From a virus (lineage: Duplodnaviria > Heunggongvirae > Uroviricota > Caudoviricetes): a DNA stretch of 17,408 nt. The notes below the pieces were generated by a model. The model was given only the letters and a program-made list of their open reading frames with translations, was not told the origin of the DNA and made no database searches. How positions within the stretch are numbered: position 1 is the first letter of the stretch; each line of letters begins with the position of its first letter. The stretch is from IMG/VR virus record IMGVR_UViG_2630968397_000004. One strand, given 5' to 3'. A program made the position numbers and the translations under genes. Of this stretch, positions 4,545 through 17,408 are shown piece after piece.

Positions 4545-5186
4545 TCAGCGACCAATCACCACAACCTGACCACCATCCCCTTCGTCTGCCGTGCTGATCT
4601 CCTGAGAAACCACACGTGACCCCACGCGCATTTCACCGTACAGAACGGGCAGAACATTGCCCTGGGCAACCATGTTATCCAGTGACGAGAAATACGTGTT
4701 CTGCTTACCGTTATCCGTTGTCTGTGTACGGGGAGTTCTGGCTTTCGGTGCCAGCATCTGTGCAACACCGCCAAGCGTCATACTGGCACCGAGAGAAAAC
4801 AGCAGATTACTCGCCATAATTCCTACCCCCGGCATCCATATAGCAACCGCCATAACAGCCGCCCCCAGCACCGCCTGAAACACACCGCCACTTTTAGCTC
4901 CCACCAGACGCGGTACTATGTGGATCACTGCACCATTTGCCAGCGGCTCATTAAGACGGGCAGACAATTCGGTTTCACCTGCATCACGCCCGGCAATGCG
5001 CACCTGATACCAGCCGTCACTCAGTTTCTGACGAAACGCCGGGAGCTGTGTGGCCAGTGCCCGGATGGCTTCAGCCCCCGTTTTCACACGAAGGTCGATG
5101 CGGCGACCAAATCGTTGTAAATCCCCGTAAAGGCAGATGCGCGCCATGCCCGGTGACGCCAGAGGGAGTGTGTGCGTCGCTGCCAT
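4545..5186 (-). CDS. I: lambda I-like tail tip assembly protein (213 aa)
   Basis: ORF track protein MAATHTLPLASPGMARICLYGDLQRFGRRIDLRVKTGAEAIRALATQLPAF... recognised as lambda gpI. Overlaps K by 103 nt as in lambda. Confidence 0.9.
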   Translation of the reverse strand: MAATHTLPLASPGMARICLYGDLQRFGRRIDLRVKTGAEAIRALATQLPAFRQKLSDGWYQVRIAGRDAGETELSARLNEPLANGAVIHIVPRLVGAKSGGVFQAVLGAAVMAVAIWMPGVGIMASNLLFSLGASMTLGGVAQMLAPKARTPRTQTTDNGKQNTYFSSLDNMVAQGNVLPVLYGEMRVGSRVVSQEISTADEGDGGQVVVIGR

Positions 5187-5827
5187 TTGTCGGTGTACCT
5201 CTCTCGTTTGCTCAGTTGTTCAGGAATATGGTGCAGCAGCCCGCCGTCACCGCAGTAAATGGCGGCATGATTCGGCACCGATGAACCAAAACAGCACAGC
5301 AGCACATCGCCCGGCTGTGCCTCTGTCAGTGCGACACGGTAAAAACCCGTCACCTCCATATTGTCAAGATAGAGATTCTGACCGTTACGCCACCAGTCAT
5401 CCCCGCGATGAAAATCCGGCATCTCAATCCCTGCCAGATGATAAGCATCCCGGAACAGCGTGTAACAGTCCGTCACCCCGTGCTCAAAGCGCCGCCCGGT
5501 GAGATGCGGCACACAGCGGAACTTGTGAATCGCCCCCCGGCAGACCAGCCACCACGGCAAATCACTCTGCACCTGCAGCCGCCGGTCAGCCTCACTCAGC
5601 CAGGGCAGACCACCGGGATGACTGTGGACCAGCGCCACAATCTCACCCTGCATTTGTGCCCGCAGCCAGTCCTCCGGAGCCATCCGGAACCGTTCCTCCG
5701 GCTCACCGGAGATATTCTCGCTGGGAAGATACCTGTCTCCCTCCGGCGTTCTTACCACGAAGCCACACGACTCCGCTGGCGCACATCGCCGGGCGTGCGC
5801 CAGAATCGCTGATTCTGTCTGTGTCAT
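5084..5827 (-). CDS. K: lambda K-like tail tip assembly protein (MPN/JAMM-like HSHP motif; 247 aa from the ATG at 5825-5827)
   Basis: Track ORF 5084..6091 starts at an upstream GTG that overlaps L and is probably over-extended. The in-frame ATG giving MTQTESAILAHARR... lies 4 nt after the L stop. A later internal ATG (5681-5683, MAPEDWL...) would give 199 aa. HSHPGG and NlpC/P60-like C-terminal region recognised. Confidence 0.85.
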   Translation of the reverse strand: MTQTESAILAHARRCAPAESCGFVVRTPEGDRYLPSENISGEPEERFRMAPEDWLRAQMQGEIVALVHSHPGGLPWLSEADRRLQVQSDLPWWLVCRGAIHKFRCVPHLTGRRFEHGVTDCYTLFRDAYHLAGIEMPDFHRGDDWWRNGQNLYLDNMEVTGFYRVALTEAQPGDVLLCCFGSSVPNHAAIYCGDGGLLHHIPEQLSKRERYTDKWQRRTHSLWRHRAWRASAFTGIYNDLVAASTFV

Positions 5828-5831
5828 GGAT

Positions 5832-6530
5832 TTACTGAGAAAGTTTATTGATGGAAAGGAAACCGCCGAAATTACCGGTATTGTTGCGCAACTCACACCC
5901 GCGCATACACTTGCTGCATTTGTCCTTCCGGATATCCGTCGTTGGTTTGTCGAACTCGTCAGCCACTGCCCTGCCCGTGTAACCACACTCATCAGAACGG
6001 TAAGTCCACATACAGGTATTCGCCAGCATGATACGCCCCGGGAAAACCGCGCCATCCGTCTCCGTTGGTGTGGCCAGCACAAAAGAGGCACTGACCGCGC
6101 TCAGTTCGCTGCACTGCTCGATGCGCCAGCGGCTGATCACCTCCTGTTCCGGATCGGCGTCGCTGTTTCCGTTGACGAAGTTCACCGCATCCAGAAAACG
6201 GGCGTAAACCTTACGCCTGACCACCGTTCCGCCGACCAGACTCTGCAGGTCTTCCGCCATCCCGGTGACCATTCCGTGCAGGTTAGAAACCGTCAGTGTC
6301 GGACGGGCAGCACTGCCCTTGCCGTTCAGTTCAAATCCCGTCCCCTGAATGGGGTATGCCTGATACTGCCGCCCCTGCCAGGTAACCGGCTCACCTTTTT
6401 CGTTCTGCTCATTACAGAAAAAATAACGTTCACCACCGACCTCTGTCAGATCGATTTCCCAGAGCACCACCTGGGCTGACTGAGTGAGGCGTGTCGTCTC
6501 ATGATGTGTTTCCTGTGGAATATCCTGCAT
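5832..6530 (-). CDS. L: lambda L-like tail tip protein (232 aa)
   Basis: ORF track protein MQDIPQETHHETTRLTQSAQVVLWEIDLTEVGGERYFFCNEQ... recognised as lambda gpL; same length and gene order as lambda. Confidence 0.9.
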   Translation of the reverse strand: MQDIPQETHHETTRLTQSAQVVLWEIDLTEVGGERYFFCNEQNEKGEPVTWQGRQYQAYPIQGTGFELNGKGSAARPTLTVSNLHGMVTGMAEDLQSLVGGTVVRRKVYARFLDAVNFVNGNSDADPEQEVISRWRIEQCSELSAVSASFVLATPTETDGAVFPGRIMLANTCMWTYRSDECGYTGRAVADEFDKPTTDIRKDKCSKCMRGCELRNNTGNFGGFLSINKLSQ

Positions 6531-6539
6531 CAGAGCCTC

Positions 6540-6869
6540 CTATGCCACGACCTGTTCAAAATCTGCCGTTATGGTTACCCACAACGCCCCCACGCTTGCC
6601 GACCATTTACGACAAACCACCCTGATCGGCTTCCAGTCATAAGGTGGCGTCCACTGAAATGCGCGGACGCCACCGTGCCGTTCCAGAAAGGCTTTTAAAA
6701 ATGGGTGTTCACCTTTACGAACACGTATCTTCACGCTGTAAGTCGACAACTGGTTATTCAGTCCCGCCGCACGACGCTGTTCATAACCATCGCCCAGCTT
6801 CACTGTCACCACTTTCGGCTCTGATACCACATTCATATCCGGGCGCACTTTCCAGTGAAACGTCTCCAT
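6540..6869 (-). CDS. M: lambda M-like tail tip protein (109 aa)
   Basis: ORF track protein METFHWKVRPDMNVVSEPKVVTVKLGDGYEQRRAAGLNNQ... recognised as lambda gpM. Start overlaps the stop of the H fragment. Confidence 0.9.
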   Translation of the reverse strand: METFHWKVRPDMNVVSEPKVVTVKLGDGYEQRRAAGLNNQLSTYSVKIRVRKGEHPFLKAFLERHGGVRAFQWTPPYDWKPIRVVCRKWSASVGALWVTITADFEQVVA

Positions 6870-7208
6870 TACCGGTATGCTCCACTTAACCGGCCACCAT
6901 CACGGGCCTGCTGTTGCATAAAGTCCGCGGCCGCTTTTTTCCCGAGGTCATAAACCACCTTCAGGGCAGCCGGACCTATCTGCCCGTTCGTGCCATCGTT
7001 ATTGATCTCAATGTTGTACTGCGGGGCAAACATCACCATGCCTGAACCACCAGTATCCGCCACACCCCCCAGCTTACCATCAGCACCGCGACGCAGTGGC
7101 AGAATGGCTTCAGGTCCCGCTTCCCCCATCACACCCGCGCCTTTTGCAAAAGCAAAAAACGTCGGACGGTTAACCACCGTGCCACTGTAGCGACTCAAAT
7201 CAGCAGAC
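6869..7208 (-). pseudogene. H: 3' fragment of lambda H-like tape measure gene, truncated by IS600 insertion
   Basis: Reading frame is open from the IS600 left end (7209) down to the stop at 6869 and encodes ...ADLSRYSGTVVNRPTFFAFAKGAGVMGEAGPEAILPLRRGADGKLGG..., a tape-measure C-terminus-like sequence. The track's leading MSVKLRLP residues are encoded by IS600 terminal sequence. Confidence 0.8.
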
Positions 7209-7690
7209 TGAGGTAGCCTGAGTTTAACGGACACTCCTTCCTGAAATAGAATGGCATCAGAAGGAGCTAATAATGAGCAGAAAAACCCAACGTTACTCTA
7301 AAGAGTTCAAAGCCGAAGCTGTCAGAACGGTTCCTGAAAATCAACTTTCGATCAGTGAAGGCGCTTCCCGATTATCTCTTCCTGAAGGCACTTTAGGACA
7401 ATGGGTTACCGCCGCCAGAAAAGGGCTCGGTACTCCTGGTTCCCGCACGGTGGCTGAACTGGAATCTGAAATTCTGCAACTGCGTAAGGCGTTAAATGAA
7501 GCTCGCCTTGAGCGAGATATATTAAAAAAAGCAACAGCGTATTTTGCACAGGAGTCGCTGAAAAATACGCGTTAATCGAACAATGGCGACAACAATTTCC
7601 CATTGAAGCGATGTGTCAGGTATTTGGTGTATCCAGGAGCGGTTATTACAACTGGGTACAGCATGAACCCTCAGACAGAAAACAAAGTGA
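7209..7690 (+). mobile_element. IS600 (IS3 family), truncated copy 1: left 482 bp only
   Basis: Starts with the same TGAGGTAGCCTGAGTTTAACGG terminus and orfA offset (64 nt) as the full-length copy at 15654-16917. Sequence stops matching after ...AAAGTGA, where a second IS600 left end begins. Confidence 0.9.
7273..7575 (+). CDS. IS600 OrfA (100 aa, helix-turn-helix transposase N-terminal part)
   Basis: ORF track; identical to orfA of copy 3. A7 slippery run (TTAAAAAAAGC) near the 3' end where the -1 frame is open. Confidence 0.9.
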   Translation: MSRKTQRYSKEFKAEAVRTVPENQLSISEGASRLSLPEGTLGQWVTAARKGLGTPGSRTVAELESEILQLRKALNEARLERDILKKATAYFAQESLKNTR

Positions 7691-7751
7691 GGTAGCCTGA
7701 GTTTAACGGACACTCCTTCCTGAAATAGAATGGCATCAGAAGGAGCTAATA

Positions 7752-8054
7752 ATGAGCAGAAAAACCCAACGTTACTCTAAAGAGTTCAAAGCCGAAGCTG
7801 TCAGAACGGTTCTTGAAAATCAACTTTCGATCAGTGAAGGCGCTTCCCGATTATCTCTTCCTGAAGGCACTTTAGGACAATGGGTTACCGCCGCCAGAAA
7901 AGGGCTCGGTACTCCTGGTTCCCGCACGGTGGCTGAACTGGAATCTGAAATTCTGCAACTGCGTAAGGCGTTAAATGAAGCTCGCCTTGAGCGAGATATA
8001 TTAAAAAAAGCAACAGCGTATTTTGCACAGGAGTCGCTGAAAAATACGCGTTAA
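7752..8054 (+). CDS. IS600 OrfA (100 aa)
   Basis: ORF track; P21L variant of the other copies. Confidence 0.9.
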   Translation: MSRKTQRYSKEFKAEAVRTVLENQLSISEGASRLSLPEGTLGQWVTAARKGLGTPGSRTVAELESEILQLRKALNEARLERDILKKATAYFAQESLKNTR

Positions 8055-8089
8055 TCGAACAATGGCGACAACAATTTCCCATTGAAGCG

Positions 8090-8729
8090 ATGTGTCAGGT
8101 ATTTGGTGTATCCAGGAGCGGTTATTACAACTGGGTACAGCATGAACCCTCAGACAGAAAACAAAGTGATGAGCGGCTAAAACTGGAGATTAAGGTGGCA
8201 CATATCCGCACTCGCGAAACATATGGAACCCGGCGGCTCCAGACGGAGCTGGCAGAGAATGGCATCATCGTTGGTCGTGACCGACTGGCACGTCTTCGTA
8301 AGGAGCTAAGGCTACGCTGTAAGCAGAAACGCAAGTTCAGAGCGACTACGAACTCGAACCACAATCTGCCAGTTGCGCCAAATCTGCTGAACCAGACGTT
8401 CGCTCCTACAGCACCAAATCAGGTCTGGGTGGCGGACCTGACGTATGTTGCCACACAGGAGGGATGGTTGTACCTCGCAGGAGCAGTCTGGTCTGAAAAC
8501 ATCAATGTCGCGTAAAGGTAACTGTTACGACAACGCTCCGATGGAAAGCTTCTGGGGAACGCTGAAAAATGAGAGCCTGAGCCACTATCGTTTTAATAAC
8601 CGGGATGAAGCCATCTCAGTAATACGGGAATACATTGAGATTTTCTACAATCGTCAGCGTCGTCACTCTCGTCTGGGGAATATCTCCCCGGCAGCCTTCA
8701 GGGAAAAATATCATCAGATGGCTGCTTAA
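8090..8729 (+). pseudogene. IS600 orfB disrupted by the 179-bp deletion (frameshifted; split into 141-aa and 94-aa track ORFs)
   Basis: Track ORFs 8090..8515 and 8445..8729 together correspond to the 272-aa OrfB of copy 3 minus residues IKDVYTCE...DYRVIQ. Confidence 0.85.
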
Positions 8730-8822
8730 AAAAAGAACAAATGGTAGTGTCCGCTATTGCCAGTACACCTCACACTCTATCCAACAAACCACCCACAGTT
8801 AATCGGAATAAAAGCAGAGTGC

Positions 8823-8954: not shown

Positions 8955-9029
<75 letters not shown>

Positions 9030-9032
9030 ATA

Positions 9033-9108
<76 letters not shown>

Positions 9109-9110
9109 GC

Positions 9111-9187
9111 TGGCCCACCACCGAGGACTCGAACCTCGCACCGTCAACTTAGAAGGTTGATGCTCTATCCGGATGAGCTAGTGGTGG
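9111..9187 (-). tRNA. tRNA-Arg (anticodon UCU), 77 nt with encoded CCA
   Basis: Reverse complement CCACCACTAGCTCATCCGGATAGAGCATCAACCTTCTAAGTTGACGGTGCGAGGTTCGAGTCCTCGGTGGTGGGCCA. All four stems pair; anticodon loop CTTCTAA. Confidence 0.75.
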
Positions 9188-9188
9188 T

Positions 9189-9265
9189 TGGTGGCCCTTG
9201 CTGGACTTGAACCAGCGACCTGGCGATTATGAGTCGCTCGCTCTGACCAACTGAGCTAAAGGGCC
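9189..9265 (-). tRNA. tRNA with CAU anticodon, Ile2 (ileX/ileZ-like, lysidine) or Met, 77 nt with encoded CCA
   Basis: Reverse complement GGCCCTTTAGCTCAGTTGGTCAGAGCGAGCGACTCATAATCGCCAGGTCGCTGGTTCAAGTCCAGCAAGGGCCACCA. Close resemblance to E. coli tRNA-Ile2 (GCGACTCATAATCGC core and identical T arm). Separated from tRNA-Arg by 1 nt. Confidence 0.75.
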
Positions 9266-9454: not shown

Positions 9455-10009
9455 TCAAAAAGCAATAACTTTTTTCTCTATACCAAAAGCCATAACCATT
9501 GGTTTGTACAAAATAAATTCTGCCACCTTTAGCCAATGCTCAATGCGTCTTTCACAGGTTCTTAAACTCCATTTCGGGTGTGCATCATTCAGCAGTTCAG
9601 CCATTTTGCGTTTGGTCATCCCCCGCCCCTCATACCGTTGCCGAAGGACGCTAATCAATCCTGGATGCTCTGCCAGCACCTCACTTATGACCCGATCAAT
9701 ACATAACGCCTCTGCATCAGTACAATGCGCCAGCCAGCTCTTTTGCTTACCGTTAATCATATCCCGCAAAAAAGCCTCAAGTTCAGACTTGTTCAGACCT
9801 GCTTTTTTCATCCTCCGGAGCGCCTCGTTAATTGCCGTTTTTGTCAGCTTTTTAGAGGTCAACATCAGGTTAAACATATTCCCCGTCTTACCGCCACCAA
9901 TATACGACCAGCGCCCCCACATACGTAGTTTTCCCTGAATCCAGACACTTTCCAGCGTGGTGAGACGAAGGTGTTCTCCGCTTTTTCCTGTATTCGTTGG
10001 GTAAATCAT
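9455..10009 (-). CDS. putative late-gene antiterminator Q-like protein (184 aa)
   Basis: In-frame ATG (MIYPTNTGKSGEHLRLTTLESVWIQGKLRMWGRWSYIGGG...) with AGGAGG Shine-Dalgarno 8 nt upstream. Start overlaps the YbcO-like stop (ATGA). Position is immediately upstream of the tR'-like terminator and phage tRNAs, as for Q in Stx-type lambdoid phages. Track ORF start at 10129 is over-extended. Family call is from positional logic and partial sequence recollection. Confidence 0.6.
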   Translation of the reverse strand: MIYPTNTGKSGEHLRLTTLESVWIQGKLRMWGRWSYIGGGKTGNMFNLMLTSKKLTKTAINEALRRMKKAGLNKSELEAFLRDMINGKQKSWLAHCTDAEALCIDRVISEVLAEHPGLISVLRQRYEGRGMTKRKMAELLNDAHPKWSLRTCERRIEHWLKVAEFILYKPMVMAFGIEKKVIAF

Positions 10010-11179: not shown

Positions 11180-11285
11180 GATGCCTCCAGGTTTATAAGT
11201 ACAAACGGTTATATCAACATAGAGACAAAAGGTGATGCTGCCAACTTACTGATTTAGTGTATGATCGTGTTTTTGAGGTGCTCCA

Positions 11286-11561
11286 GTGGCTTCTGTTTCT
11301 ATCAGCTGTCCCTCCTGTTCAGCTACTGACGGGGTGGTGCGTAACGGCAAAAGCACTGCCGGACATCAGCGCTATCTCTGCTCTCACTGCCGTAAAACAT
11401 GGCAACTGCAGTTCACTTACACCGCTTCCCAACCCGGTACGCACCAGAAAATCATTGATATGGCCATGAATGGCGTTGGATGCCGGGCAACTGCACGCAT
11501 TATGGGCGTTGGCCTCAACACGATTTTACGTCACTTAAAAAACTCAGGCCGCAGTCGGTAA
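11286..11561 (+). CDS. insA: IS1 InsA (91 aa)
   Basis: ORF track protein [43 protein letters not shown]... A6C frameshift motif TTAAAAAACTC at 11535-11545. Confidence 0.95.
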
Positions 11562-11983
11562 CCTCGCGCATACAGCCGGGCAGTGACGTCATCGTCTGCG
11601 CGGAAATGGACGAACAGTGGGGCTATGTCGGGGCTAAATCGCGCCAGCGCTGGCTGTTTTACGCGTATGACAGTCTCCGGAAGACGGTTGTTGCGCACGT
11701 ATTCGGTGAACGCACTATGGCGACGCTGGGGCGTCTTATGAGCCTGCTGTCACCCTTTGACGTGGTGATATGGATGACGGATGGCTGGCCGCTGTATGAA
11801 TCCCGCCTGAAGGGAAAGCTGCACGTAATCAGCAAGCGATATACGCAGCGAATTGAGCGGCATAACCTGAATCTGAGGCAGCACCTGGCACGGCTGGGAC
11901 GGAAGTCGCTGTCGTTCTCAAAATCGGTGGAGCTGCATGACAAAGTCATCGGGCATTATCTGAACATAAAACACTATCAATAA
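11480..11983 (+). CDS. insB: IS1 InsB reading frame (expressed as InsAB' transposase by -1 frameshift)
   Basis: ORF track 167 aa; -1 frame relative to insA. Confidence 0.9.
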
Positions 11984-12059
11984 GTTGGAGTCATTACCAA
12001 AAAAACCGCCGAAACGGGTTAAGTGCGGGTGCGTTGAGGATGCCTGACACATCAAAGGT

Positions 12060-12090: not shown

Positions 12091-12246
12091 TTACTCTCTA
12101 GATTCGTAGTCTACGAAAACAGCGACCTCCGTCTGGCCGATTCGGATTCGTACCTCGCAGAGGTCTTTCCTCGTTACCAGTGCCGTCACAATGACGGTTA
12201 AACAGATGACGATCAGGGCGATTAACATCGCCTTTTGCTGCTTCAT
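12091..12246 (-). CDS. hok: Hok-family type I toxin (51 aa)
   Basis: MKQQKAMLIALIVICLTVIVTALVTRKDLCEVRIRIGQTEVAVFVDYESRE, recognised as Hok/Gef family (closest to HokD/RelF as recalled). SD AAGGAGAAG upstream of ATG. Track ORF 12091..12303 is the in-frame upstream (mok-like) extension. Confidence 0.85.
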   Translation of the reverse strand: MKQQKAMLIALIVICLTVIVTALVTRKDLCEVRIRIGQTEVAVFVDYESRE

Positions 12247-12420
12247 AGCCTGCTTCTCCTTGCCTTTCGGCACGTAAGAGGCTAACCTACATTTGTGAGA
12301 CATAGATTGGGCCTCAGATTAATGTTAAGCGTCTTGCAGGACGCGTAATGTTAACTGGGGCTTTTCTCTGTCTGCCTTACAGTGACATACCCGAGGCAGA
12401 CAGCCTCAAGCACCCGCAGC
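12247..12420 (-). promoter_or_regulatory. hok mRNA leader with mok-like upstream start and conserved hok/sok leader elements
   Basis: Minus-strand sequence GCTTGAGGCTGTCTGCCTC...GGCAGACAGAGAAAAGCCCC...AGGCCCAATCTATGTCTCAC...TAGCCTCTTAC...GCAAGGAGAAGCAGGCTATGAAG parallels the plasmid R1 hok/sok leader as recalled. Confidence 0.6.
12296..12350 (+). ncRNA. putative Sok-like antisense RNA, antitoxin of the hok locus
   Basis: Plus-strand promoter-like -35 TTGCCT (12260-12265), 17-bp spacer, -10 TAACCT (12283-12288), positioned like the R1 sok promoter. Transcript would be complementary to the mok-like start region. Hairpin GCGTC-ttgcag-GACGC at 12329-12344. Inferred, not proven. Confidence 0.35.
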
Positions 12421-14405: not shown

Positions 14406-14746
14406 TTATTCAGTTCTGGATTTTGTCGCCCTGCGTATCCGCGCTTTCGCGTTACGCTCAATCTGTATCAGCTTTTCTATATTTCTCCGCCTTTCCTGTT
14501 CCTCCTGGCGCAATAGCCTTACATCATCTGCCAGTCTGGTTTCTCTTTTTGCCACAGAGAGCATCCAGTCAAACGGCTCCACAACCGCACCGCAGATTTT
14601 ACAGCGGACCTGACGCTCTTTTTCGTCAACCCGGACAGAGGCGTGATGGCAATATGGTCTTTCCGATGGTTCATAAAGAAAATTAACCTGATTACGTGGG
14701 TCATCCTCTTTTACCGGAAATAAAACGATATTGCTTAACTCATCTT
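14406..14746 (-). pseudogene. 3' portion of a 118-aa Zn-ribbon/basic coiled-coil phage gene interrupted by IS1 copy B
   Basis: Frame is open from the IS1 junction to TAA at 14406-14408 (...CHHASVRVDEKERQVRCKICGAVVEPFDWMLSVAKRETRLADDVRLLRQEEQERRRNIEKLIQIERNAKARIRRATKSRTE). Continues across the IS1 target duplication into 15515-15540. Confidence 0.6.
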
Positions 14747-14801
14747 GGTGATGCTGCCAACTTACTGATTTAGTGTATGATGGTGTTTTTGAGGTGCTCC
14801 A

Positions 14802-15077
14802 GTGGCTTCTGTTTCTATCAGCTGTCCCTCCTGTTCAGCTACTGACGGGGTGGTGCGTAACGGCAAAAGCACTGCCGGACATCAGCGCTATCTCTGCTCT
14901 CACTGCCGTAAAACATGGCAACTGCAGTTCACTTACACCGCTTCTCAACCCGGTACGCACCAGAAAATCATTGATATGGCCATGAATGGCGTTGGATGCC
15001 GGGCAACAGCACGCATTATGGGCGTTGGCCTCAACACGATTTTACGTCACTTAAAAAACTCAGGCCGCAGTCGGTAA
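14802..15077 (+). CDS. insA: IS1 InsA (91 aa)
   Basis: ORF track; A6C frameshift motif present. Confidence 0.95.
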
Positions 15078-15499
15078 CCTCGCGCATACAGCCGGGCAGT
15101 GACGTCATCGTCTGCGCGGAAATGGACGAACAGTGGGGCTATGTCGGGGCTAAATCGCGCCAGCGCTGGCTGTTTTACGCGTATGACAGTCTCCGGAAGA
15201 CGGTTGTTGCGCACGTATTCGGTGAACGCACTATGGCGACGCTGGGGCGTCTTATGAGCCTGCTGTCACCCTTTGACGTGGTGATATGGATGACGGATGG
15301 CTGGCCGCTGTATGAATCCCGCCTGAAGGGAAAGCTGCACGTAATCAGCAAGCGATATACGCAGCGAATTGAGCGGCATAACCTGAATCTGAGGCAGCAC
15401 CTGGCACGGCTGGGACGGAAGTCGCTGTCGTTCTCAAAATCGGTGGAGCTGCATGACAAAGTCATCGGGCATTATCTGAACATAAAACACTATCAATAA
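14996..15499 (+). CDS. insB: IS1 InsB reading frame
   Basis: ORF track. Confidence 0.9.
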
Positions 15500-15514
15500 G
15501 TTGGAGTCATTACC

Positions 15515-15540
15515 AACTCATCTTCTGGTTTTATTTCCAT
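15515..15540 (-). pseudogene. 5' portion (start codon and first codons MEIKPEDEL...) of the IS1-interrupted 118-aa gene
   Basis: ATG at 15538-15540 (minus) with AAAGGAGAGGAGC upstream. Joining across one copy of the 10-bp duplication restores a continuous 118-codon ORF. Confidence 0.55.
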
Positions 15541-15717
15541 GCTCCTCTCCTTTGATGCGAATACCAGCGGTAATTGAAGCCTGATAGCTAATTTTACTCA
15601 CAGTACCGCCTCCTGAAATTTCCCCTGATAAAACGCCAGCACGCGCTGCATAGTGAGGTAGCCTGAGTTTAACGGACACTCCTTCCTGAAATAGAATGGC
15701 ATCAGAAGGAGCTAATA

Positions 15718-16020
15718 ATGAGCAGAAAAACCCAACGTTACTCTAAAGAGTTCAAAGCCGAAGCTGTCAGAACGGTTCCTGAAAATCAACTTTCGATCAG
15801 TGAAGGCGCTTCCCGATTATCTCTTCCTGAAGGCACTTTAGGACAATGGGTTACCGCCGCCAGAAAAGGGCTCGGTACTCCTGGTTCCCGCACGGTGGCT
15901 GAACTGGAATCTGAAATTCTGCAACTGCGTAAGGCGTTAAATGAAGCTCGCCTTGAGCGAGATATATTAAAAAAAGCAACAGCGTATTTTGCACAGGAGT
16001 CGCTGAAAAATACGCGTTAA
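15718..16020 (+). CDS. IS600 OrfA (100 aa)
   Basis: ORF track. Confidence 0.95.
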   Translation: MSRKTQRYSKEFKAEAVRTVPENQLSISEGASRLSLPEGTLGQWVTAARKGLGTPGSRTVAELESEILQLRKALNEARLERDILKKATAYFAQESLKNTR

Positions 16021-16055
16021 TCGAACAATGGCGACAACAATTTCCCATTGAAGCG

Positions 16056-16874
16056 ATGTGTCAGGTATTTGGTGTATCCAGGAGCGGTTATTACAACTGG
16101 GTACAGCATGAACCCTCAGACAGAAAACAAAGTGATGAGCGGCTAAAACTGGAGATTAAGGTGGCACATATCCGCACTCGCGAAACATATGGAACCCGGC
16201 GGCTCCAGACGGAGCTGGCAGAGAATGGCATCATCGTTGGTCGTGACCGACTGGCACGTCTTCGTAAGGAGCTAAGGCTACGCTGTAAGCAGAAACGCAA
16301 GTTCAGAGCGACTACGAACTCGAACCACAATCTGCCAGTTGCGCCAAATCTGCTGAACCAGACGTTCGCTCCTACAGCACCAAATCAGGTCTGGGTGGCG
16401 GACCTGACGTATGTTGCCACACAGGAGGGATGGTTGTACCTCGCTGGCATCAAAGATGTTTATACGTGCGAAATTGTCGGCTACGCCATGGGAGAGCGCA
16501 TGACAAAAGAGCTGACAGGTAAAGCCCTGTTTATGGCGCTCAGGAGCCAGCGCCCACCTGCCGGGCTAATCCACCACTCTGATCGAGGTTCACAGTACTG
16601 CGCATACGATTACCGGGTCATACAGGAGCAGTCTGGTCTGAAAACATCAATGTCGCGTAAAGGTAACTGTTACGACAACGCTCCGATGGAAAGCTTCTGG
16701 GGAACGCTGAAAAATGAGAGCCTGAGCCACTATCGTTTTAATAACCGGGATGAAGCCATCTCAGTAATACGGGAATACATTGAGATTTTCTACAATCGTC
16801 AGCGTCGTCACTCTCGTCTGGGGAATATCTCCCCGGCAGCCTTCAGGGAAAAATATCATCAGATGGCTGCTTAA
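16056..16874 (+). CDS. IS600 OrfB (DDE transposase catalytic part; produced as OrfAB fusion by -1 frameshift)
   Basis: ORF track 272 aa. The -1 frame is open upstream back to the A7 slippery run at the end of orfA. Confidence 0.95.
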   Translation: MCQVFGVSRSGYYNWVQHEPSDRKQSDERLKLEIKVAHIRTRETYGTRRLQTELAENGIIVGRDRLARLRKELRLRCKQKRKFRATTNSNHNLPVAPNLLNQTFAPTAPNQVWVADLTYVATQEGWLYLAGIKDVYTCEIVGYAMGERMTKELTGKALFMALRSQRPPAGLIHHSDRGSQYCAYDYRVIQEQSGLKTSMSRKGNCYDNAPMESFWGTLKNESLSHYRFNNRDEAISVIREYIEIFYNRQRRHSRLGNISPAAFREKYHQMAA

Positions 16875-16917
16875 AAAAAGAACAAATGGTAGTGTCCGCT
16901 ATTGCCAGTACACCTCA

Positions 16918-17408
16918 TTGTGAATGTCAGAAGAAACCTGACGATACTTGATATGTTCGGTCCCCCAAAAACAAATGCCGGGATCCGGACGGTAACATTA
17001 CTGCAGCCGGCTCTTGAAGCACTGAAGGAGCAATACAAACTGACCGGGCATCATCGCAAAAGCGAAATCACTTTTTATCATCGGGAGTACGGCAGAACTG
17101 AAAAGCAAAAACTGCATTTTGTTTTCATGCCCAGGGTGTGTAACGAAAAACAGAAACCTTATTACTCGGTAAGCAGTTTGGGTGCAAGATGGAATGCAGC
17201 AGTAAAACGTGCTGGTATTCGCCGCCGTAATCCGTACCATACGCGACATACTTTTGCCTGCTGGCTGTTGACGGCAGGAGCGAACCCGGCATTTATAGCC
17301 AGCCAGATGGGGCATGAAACTGCGCAAATGGTGTATGAAATTTACGGTATGTGGATTGATGACATGAACGACGAACAGATAGCCATGTTGAATGCGCGGT
17401 TATCGTAG
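16918..17408 (+). pseudogene. 3' fragment of a phage tyrosine integrase (catalytic C-terminal domain), truncated at its 5' side by IS600
   Basis: Frame is open from the IS600 right end to TAG at 17406-17408. ...NAGIRTVTLLQ...YHTRHTFACWLLTAGANPAFIASQMGHETAQMVYEIYGMW shows R...HxxR...Y tyrosine-recombinase elements. Track ORF start (TTG 16902) lies inside IS600. No upstream coding continuation left of the IS. Confidence 0.75.

Follow-up and report, generated by a model that had tools for sequence, protein, structure and literature searches.

Results

Structure of the int end of the prophage

Homologous recombination between two IS600 copies in direct orientation most probably deleted about 16 kb at the int end of this prophage, with the excisionase gene and the initial 60% of the integrase gene among the losses, and we put the probability of this reading at about 93%. 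The window, i.e. the whole 17,408-nucleotide stretch of DNA that was analysed, is assigned by sequence comparison to the int-proximal end of a Rac-like lambdoid prophage at ttcA in Shigella sonnei. Over the final 10,456 bases, the window does not differ from the sequence of S. sonnei FORC_011 (CP010829.1), a strain of lineage IIIc (PMC5447701). In FORC_011 the ttcA gene (PF01171, 311 aa) begins 52 bp past the int stop codon, and the E. coli relatives are alike in this respect. Thus, intR adjoins ttcA with the attL side in place, as in a Rac-like prophage. Previous work identified ttcA as the rac integration site and intR as its neighbour, established YdaQ/XisR as the Rac excisionase, and listed S. 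sonnei 53G among the strains with a rac-like prophage at ttcA (PMC4632033). The window shares the integrase, the ttcA locus and the lambdoid gene order with Rac of E. coli K-12 as described there (PMC4632033), but differs from it in that intR is cut after nt 745 and in that xisR, the entire pL arm and the immunity region are missing. Undeleted relatives of the window also differ from K-12 Rac, since they carry gam and an AAA_24 ATPase gene at the position of recT.

The surviving part of intR is preceded by IS600 copy 3 (15654-16917, plus strand), a complete element of 1264 bp with the ends TGAGGT...ACCTCA. It contains orfA (15718-16020, plus strand; 100 aa, PF01527, HTH_Tnp_1) and orfB (16056-16874, plus strand; 272 aa, PF00665, rve). 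By its size, its terminal inverted repeats and its orfA/orfB organization this segment is IS600, a member of the IS3 family, and RefSeq labels the matching copies 'IS3-like element IS600 family transposase'. The element is flanked by the triplet TAG at 15651-15653 on its left side and by TTG at 16918-16920 on its right side. This mismatch had been pointed out previously and is read directly in the window; hence there is no 3-bp target duplication.

DNA to the left of IS600 copy 3

The gap between IS1 copy 2 and IS600 copy 3 is 139 bp long (15515-15653), or 129 bp without the 10-bp IS1 target duplication, and it is not int sequence. The earlier note had described stop codons in all three plus-strand frames of the 129 bp, and we confirmed this for the 139-bp stretch. 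The last 56 nt of a DUF977 (ydaW-like) gene lie directly against the IS600 copy (15598-15653, minus strand) and mark the left breakpoint; they encode residues 124-140, MQRVLAFYQGKFQEAVL, followed by the stop codon. The translation MQRVLAFYQGKFQEAVL is the C-terminus of the intact 140-aa DUF977 proteins in two intact loci, one of which is from E. coli FDAARGOS_944, and related E. coli loci annotate this gene as a DUF977 family protein.

IS1 interrupts the gene downstream of DUF977, a zinc-ribbon-like phage ORF of 118 aa. Its first 16 nt, including the start codon at 15540-15538, are found at 15525-15540, and its distal 341 nt are found at 14406-14746, both on the minus strand. IS1 copy 2 (14747-15514, plus strand, 768 bp) is a simple insertion with a 10-bp target duplication, AACTCATCTT, at 14737-14746 and 15515-15524; RefSeq labels the matching copies as IS1A family transposase. 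Removal of 14747-15524 (778 bp, i.e. the 768-bp IS1 plus the 10-bp duplication) restores the 118-aa ORF, which is then identical to the intact one in E. coli FDAARGOS_944 (locus 9552-9908). As the 139 bp hold parts of DUF977 and of the 118-aa ORF, and the N-terminal half of int is absent from the window, the suspicion that this half was not simply displaced by the insertion proved correct.

In another assembly, CP041511.1, an extra IS600 (locus 520-1783; near window position 15512) was found at the very end of IS1 copy 2, only a few bases inside it, and each of its sides is bordered by TTA. Hence, IS600 has continued to be active at the locus.

Parental insertions in S. sonnei 53G

S. sonnei 53G (HE616528.1, lineage II) carries two separate IS600 copies at the positions that correspond to the two window junctions. 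The first copy (1953228-1954491) interrupts DUF977 and is flanked by ...CTGCATAG on the left and TAGCTTCG on the right, giving a perfect TAG/TAG duplication. Removal of this IS600 together with one TAG restores an intact 140-aa DUF977 protein. The second copy (1969167-1970430) interrupts intR and is flanked by ...GGGAATTG on the left and TTGTGAATG on the right, giving a perfect TTG/TTG duplication. In intact intR, ...GGGAA is followed directly by TTGTGAATG, indicating that the TTG at the 53G intR copy is a true 3-bp target duplication. Immediately to the left of this copy, xisR and a 251-codon ORF for the 5' part of int are contiguous. The two 53G copies share the same orientation and are 15.9 kb apart.

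The left flank of IS600 in the window is the left flank of the 53G DUF977 copy, and the right flank in the window is the right flank of the 53G intR copy. IS600 copy 3 is thus identified as an element that joins the left side of the DUF977 insertion to the right side of the intR insertion. The mismatched flanks in the window, together with the perfect duplications at both 53G copies, indicate that IS600 copy 3 is a recombinant rather than a simple insertion.

The recombination pathway and the order of events that we infer are as follows. Two independent IS600 insertions in the same orientation would have occurred in an ancestor, one at the 3' end of the DUF977 (ydaW-like) replication-region gene with duplication of TAG, and the other in intR after nt 748 with duplication of TTG. 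Homologous recombination between these direct repeats, presumably carried out by host RecA, would then have excised the interval, leaving behind a single hybrid IS600 with TAG on its left and TTG on its right. The product predicted for recombination between the two 53G copies matches the window structure base for base. Both junctions, both parental insertions with their perfect duplications, the colinear flanks and the content of the remaining fragment are seen directly in these sequences.

Relative to 53G, the loss amounts to 15,939 bp (1953228-1969166), comprising one IS600 and 14,675 bp of other sequence. This sequence includes the first 123 codons of DUF977, the dnaC-like and ydaU-like replication genes, ydaT, and the repressor genes of cro-like and cI-like type. 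It also includes an IS630-type element, rha, dicB, two more IS600 copies flanking a recE fragment, gam, the AAA_24 ATPase gene, DUF1187, xisR and nt 1-745 of intR. The window lineage (IIIc) does not descend directly from strain 53G (lineage II), which is a cousin rather than the parent; the 53G DUF977 IS600 has private differences and departs from the window IS600 at three of the six variable sites.

The earlier note had proposed an IS600-mediated event at the int end, and the two-copy parental state in 53G, with flanks that match those of the window, bears this out for a deletion. It had also suggested looking for the missing 5' half of int next to another IS600 elsewhere in the genome. As recombination between direct repeats loses the intervening DNA, a copy of this kind is not expected.

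IS600 alleles and sister assemblies

Other assemblies contain further states of the same locus. In CP041511.1, the exact left and right junctions of the window are present on two IS600 copies that are 8,038 bp apart, and xisR and the 5' half of int lie between them. The recE segment of this assembly, which is situated between two inverted IS600 copies, is flipped relative to 53G. The deletion in CP044151.1 is a different one and extends from the IS600 that lies upstream of recE to the intR copy. The surviving IS600 is chimeric in this case, with C at nt 126 as in the first copy and A at nt 715 as in the intR copy, indicating that IS600 x IS600 recombination operates at this locus.

The IS600 in the window has the alleles of the DUF977 copy at both nt 126 and nt 715, and the parental copies are identical from nt 716 on. 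These SNPs are compatible with a crossover in nt 716-1264, i.e. in the 3' 549 bp, where the parents share sequence. The window structure may have arisen by direct recombination between the DUF977 and intR copies, or by way of a CP041511.1-like intermediate in which the interval had already been partly lost and inverted; the end product would be the same. In 53G an inverted IS600 between recE' and gam (locus 4573-5836) has the non-matching flanks AAC and ATA. Together with the flipped recE segment of CP041511.1, these flanks point to IS600 x IS600 rearrangements that preceded the final deletion.

One alternative is that a single IS600 in intR underwent intramolecular transposition into DUF977, producing an adjacent deletion with no need for a second parental copy. 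The same end product, one IS with non-matching flanks, would be expected from such an event, and the window IS600 carries no direct chimeric SNP signature. However, 53G and CP041511.1 each carry a separate IS600 at the exact left junction, with TAG on both sides of the copy in 53G, and an independent intramolecular event at the same nucleotide would be a coincidence. Moreover, the alleles at nt 126 and nt 715 are those of the DUF977 copy rather than the intR copy. The two-copy states in 53G and CP041511.1 largely refute this explanation, which we consider very unlikely.

Assembly error is likewise a very unlikely source of the window structure. Assemblies typically collapse at IS copies, and further IS600 copies lie in the intervening region, so that two elements could have been merged into one that falsely joined DUF977' to 'intR. 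However, the junction pair is ~1264 bp apart in 11 fetched loci, which come from separate assemblies of 4.8-4.9 Mb that are complete or nearly so. The 53G and CP041511.1 assemblies resolve the two-copy state, and correct assembly of the region is therefore achievable. Among the loci with the deletion arrangement, those confirmed as S. sonnei by name are FORC_011 and 75/02 only. The composite of IS1, the intervening flank, IS600 and 'intR was covered to at least 80% in none of the 5,426 complete E. coli genomes, and the fetched assemblies were the only source of this arrangement.

Gene order and orientation

The gene order of the prophage was compared between the window, 53G and the intact E. 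coli relatives. Read in the orientation of the window, the intact relatives begin with the minus-strand genes DUF1133 (Q-like), YbcO and DUF1367, followed further along by HNH, DUF4014, the 118-aa ORF and DUF977. Next come the dnaC-like, ydaU-like, ydaT and cro-like genes, also on the minus strand. The plus-strand genes follow, starting with cI-like and continuing through recE to xisR, intR and ttcA. The order in 53G is DUF977, dnaC-like, ydaU-like, ydaT and cro on the minus strand, then cI on the plus strand, and then recE, gam, xisR, intR (plus strand) and ttcA. In relative order and orientation, the DUF977 side (minus strand) and intR (plus strand) do not differ between the window, 53G and the intact E. 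coli relatives.

The minus-strand neighbours of int in the window are DUF977, the 118-aa ORF, DUF4014, HNH, DUF551, hok, DUF1367, YbcO and the Q-like DUF1133 gene. These genes form part of the replication/nin/Q (rightward early, pR) operon. This operon is divergent from int in lambda too, as it is in lambdoid phages generally. The earlier note had taken the opposite strands of int and the 'accessory operon' as a departure from lambda, a view that does not hold for a pR operon. The pR-operon genes lie beside int because the whole pL arm and the immunity region have been deleted.

These comparisons bear on the suggestion that the rearrangement was an inversion, in which case the 5' half of int and xisR would have been moved elsewhere, beside another IS600. 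IS600 x IS600 inversions do occur in this prophage, as the recE segment is inverted between 53G and CP041511.1. Nevertheless, the sequences on both sides of the window IS600 run colinear with the undeleted prophage of 53G, without a change of direction. The parental copies are direct repeats, whose recombination yields a deletion and not an inversion, and the pR-operon genes next to the IS600 on the minus strand are oriented relative to int as they normally are. An inversion is therefore extremely improbable. Of the two possibilities that had been raised, deletion is retained and inversion is rejected, as gene order and strand match the intact E. coli relatives and 53G.

The integrase fragment and the probable loss of excision

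Intact intR in E. coli is 1236 bp long and encodes 411 aa. The window retains the 3' 491 bp of the gene (nt 746-1236) at 16918-17408 on the plus strand, with 100% identity to the annotated intR of E. coli CFSAN029787. The fragment begins with 2 nt of codon 249 and continues through codons 250-411 (162 aa) to the stop codon. Counted against intact intR, the 162 complete codons agree with the figure of about 160 given earlier. The open frame into the fragment starts at 16902, inside the right end of IS600 copy 3, which confirms that the int frame enters from within the element; it extends to 17408 on the plus strand and has 168 codons when counted from a TTG. Gene callers assign the fragment a 151-aa product starting at an ATG at 16953. 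The native intR start codon is missing from the fragment. A match to the surviving 491 bp was found in 2,919 of the 5,426 complete E. coli genomes; identity was 95-100% in 2,912 of the 2,919 and 100% in five.

Lambda-type tyrosine integrases have the catalytic residues R-K-H-R-H/W-Y. Intact IntR resembles these enzymes in having arm-binding, core-binding and catalytic domains: PF12167 (arm-binding) covers residues 5-69, a SAM-like core-binding region covers residues 82-187, and PF00589 (catalytic) covers residues 205-391. The core-binding region gave only weak matches to PF14659 and PF13102, within residues 82-187. PF12167 was also found in the N-terminal int fragment of 53G. A domain profile search with the window fragment yielded neither PF12167 nor a core-binding match, and only positions 64-165 of the 172 in the PF00589 profile were covered. 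The description of the fragment as the catalytic C-terminal part of the integrase therefore needs adjustment; the fragment is C-terminal, but the break lies inside the catalytic domain.

In an alignment to the structure of Tn1549 Int (6EMY), R231 within 'SGLRHGEL' corresponds to the first catalytic arginine. It lies upstream of the break, which falls in codon 249, and is lost; K266, R358, H381 and Y391 are in the retained part. Compared to lambda-type tyrosine integrases, the window fragment is reduced to the C-terminal two-thirds of the catalytic domain, with Arg I and both DNA-binding domains missing. From its domain and residue content, the fragment is judged to be a dead pseudogene and not a functional tyrosine recombinase.

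The xisR gene was present upstream of intR in the two intact E. coli loci, in 53G (locus 7737-7952, PF06806) and in CP041511.1. The window has no xisR, and IS600 and DUF977' stand in its place. Rac of K-12 is still competent for excision (PMC4632033), whereas the window remnant is without both of the required genes. With the arm- and core-binding domains, R231 and xisR all gone, the remnant would be unable to direct its own excision by site-specific recombination. The predicted loss of excision in the earlier note is thus supported by the gene content of the window.

Other insertion sequences and modules in the window

A second group of IS600 sequences is located further to the left. IS600 copy 1 (7209-7687) consists of IS600 nt 1-479 only. 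Copy 2 (7688-8772, 1085 bp) adjoins it directly and is shortened by an internal deletion of 179 bp in orfB. The pair of copies joins a 121-aa ORF upstream of tail gene M directly to the tRNA/Q-like region. The 121-aa ORF (6869-7208, minus strand) is probably the 3' end of the tape-measure gene H. With this direct connection, genes for lysis and for the head are missing. The same right junction is found in 53G, in which holin, lysozyme and Rz genes still lie to the left of its IS600 cluster. By this comparison, 7209-8772 would represent another deletion linked to IS600. The cluster varies in structure between the fetched S. sonnei assemblies.

IS1 copy 1 (11231-11998) has no clean target duplication; its left flank is ...GAGACAAAA and its right flank is AAAAAAACC... 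Relative to E. coli FDAARGOS_944, which has no IS1 at this position, ~129 bp are missing at the insertion point. This difference suggests a small IS1-associated deletion or local divergence.

A cluster of four tRNA genes was identified downstream of the Q-like DUF1133 gene (8955-9265, minus strand), and ARAGORN assigned them as Gly(tcc), Thr(tgt), Arg(tct) and a Met/Ile-type(cat). In E. coli CFSAN029787, the genes of the corresponding cluster are annotated as Val, Thr, Arg and Ile. The nin region contains a hok/sok type I toxin-antitoxin module (12091-12415, minus strand), consisting of a 70-aa Hok/Gef ORF at 12091-12303 and a full-length Rfam match to the sok antitoxin RNA at 12241-12415 (118 bits). 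The tRNAs and sok were the only matches in an Rfam scan of the window.

Discussion

The large deletions by homologous recombination between directly repeated IS copies that are described for E. coli (PMC5009759) follow the same mechanism as the one proposed here. Such deletions share with the window the conversion of two IS copies in the same orientation, each with its own duplication, into one hybrid IS with mismatched flanks, and the loss of the interval. By comparison, the only oddity of the window is that the parental insertions and a second two-copy state survive in sister genomes, which allows reconstruction at the level of single bases.

The mechanism is a textbook one and the locus is already contained in published genomes. 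Neither the type of element nor the variant found in the window is new. It is an ordinary and fully explained instance of prophage decay driven by insertion sequences, and beyond annotation the case is of little import. For annotation, the 151- to 168-codon 'integrase' ORF should be named an intR pseudogene fragment, and the element should be annotated as a non-excisable Rac-like remnant. The junction pair could also serve to mark strains, by PCR or in silico, as the deletion is found in FORC_011 and 75/02 and not in 53G.

The deletion is present in two strains of lineage IIIc and absent from the lineage II strain 53G. It is conceivable, although rather unlikely, that the deletion is a fixed marker of modern S. 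sonnei lineage III, with the int 3' end and attL retained for ttcA. If so, the repressor would have been lost in one step with the division-inhibitor/toxin genes that it controls (dicB and ydaT), and this end of the prophage would be permanently locked in place. The int 3' end and attL would then have been kept because they supply the 5' end and upstream region of the Rac-type ttcA allele.

S. sonnei is known for IS expansion, and deletions between directly repeated IS copies are widely invoked for the reduction of Shigella genomes. Since sister genomes still carry the two-copy parental state as well as other products of deletion, the window provides a clean, base-resolved example of prophage erosion by IS600 expansion in S. 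sonnei.
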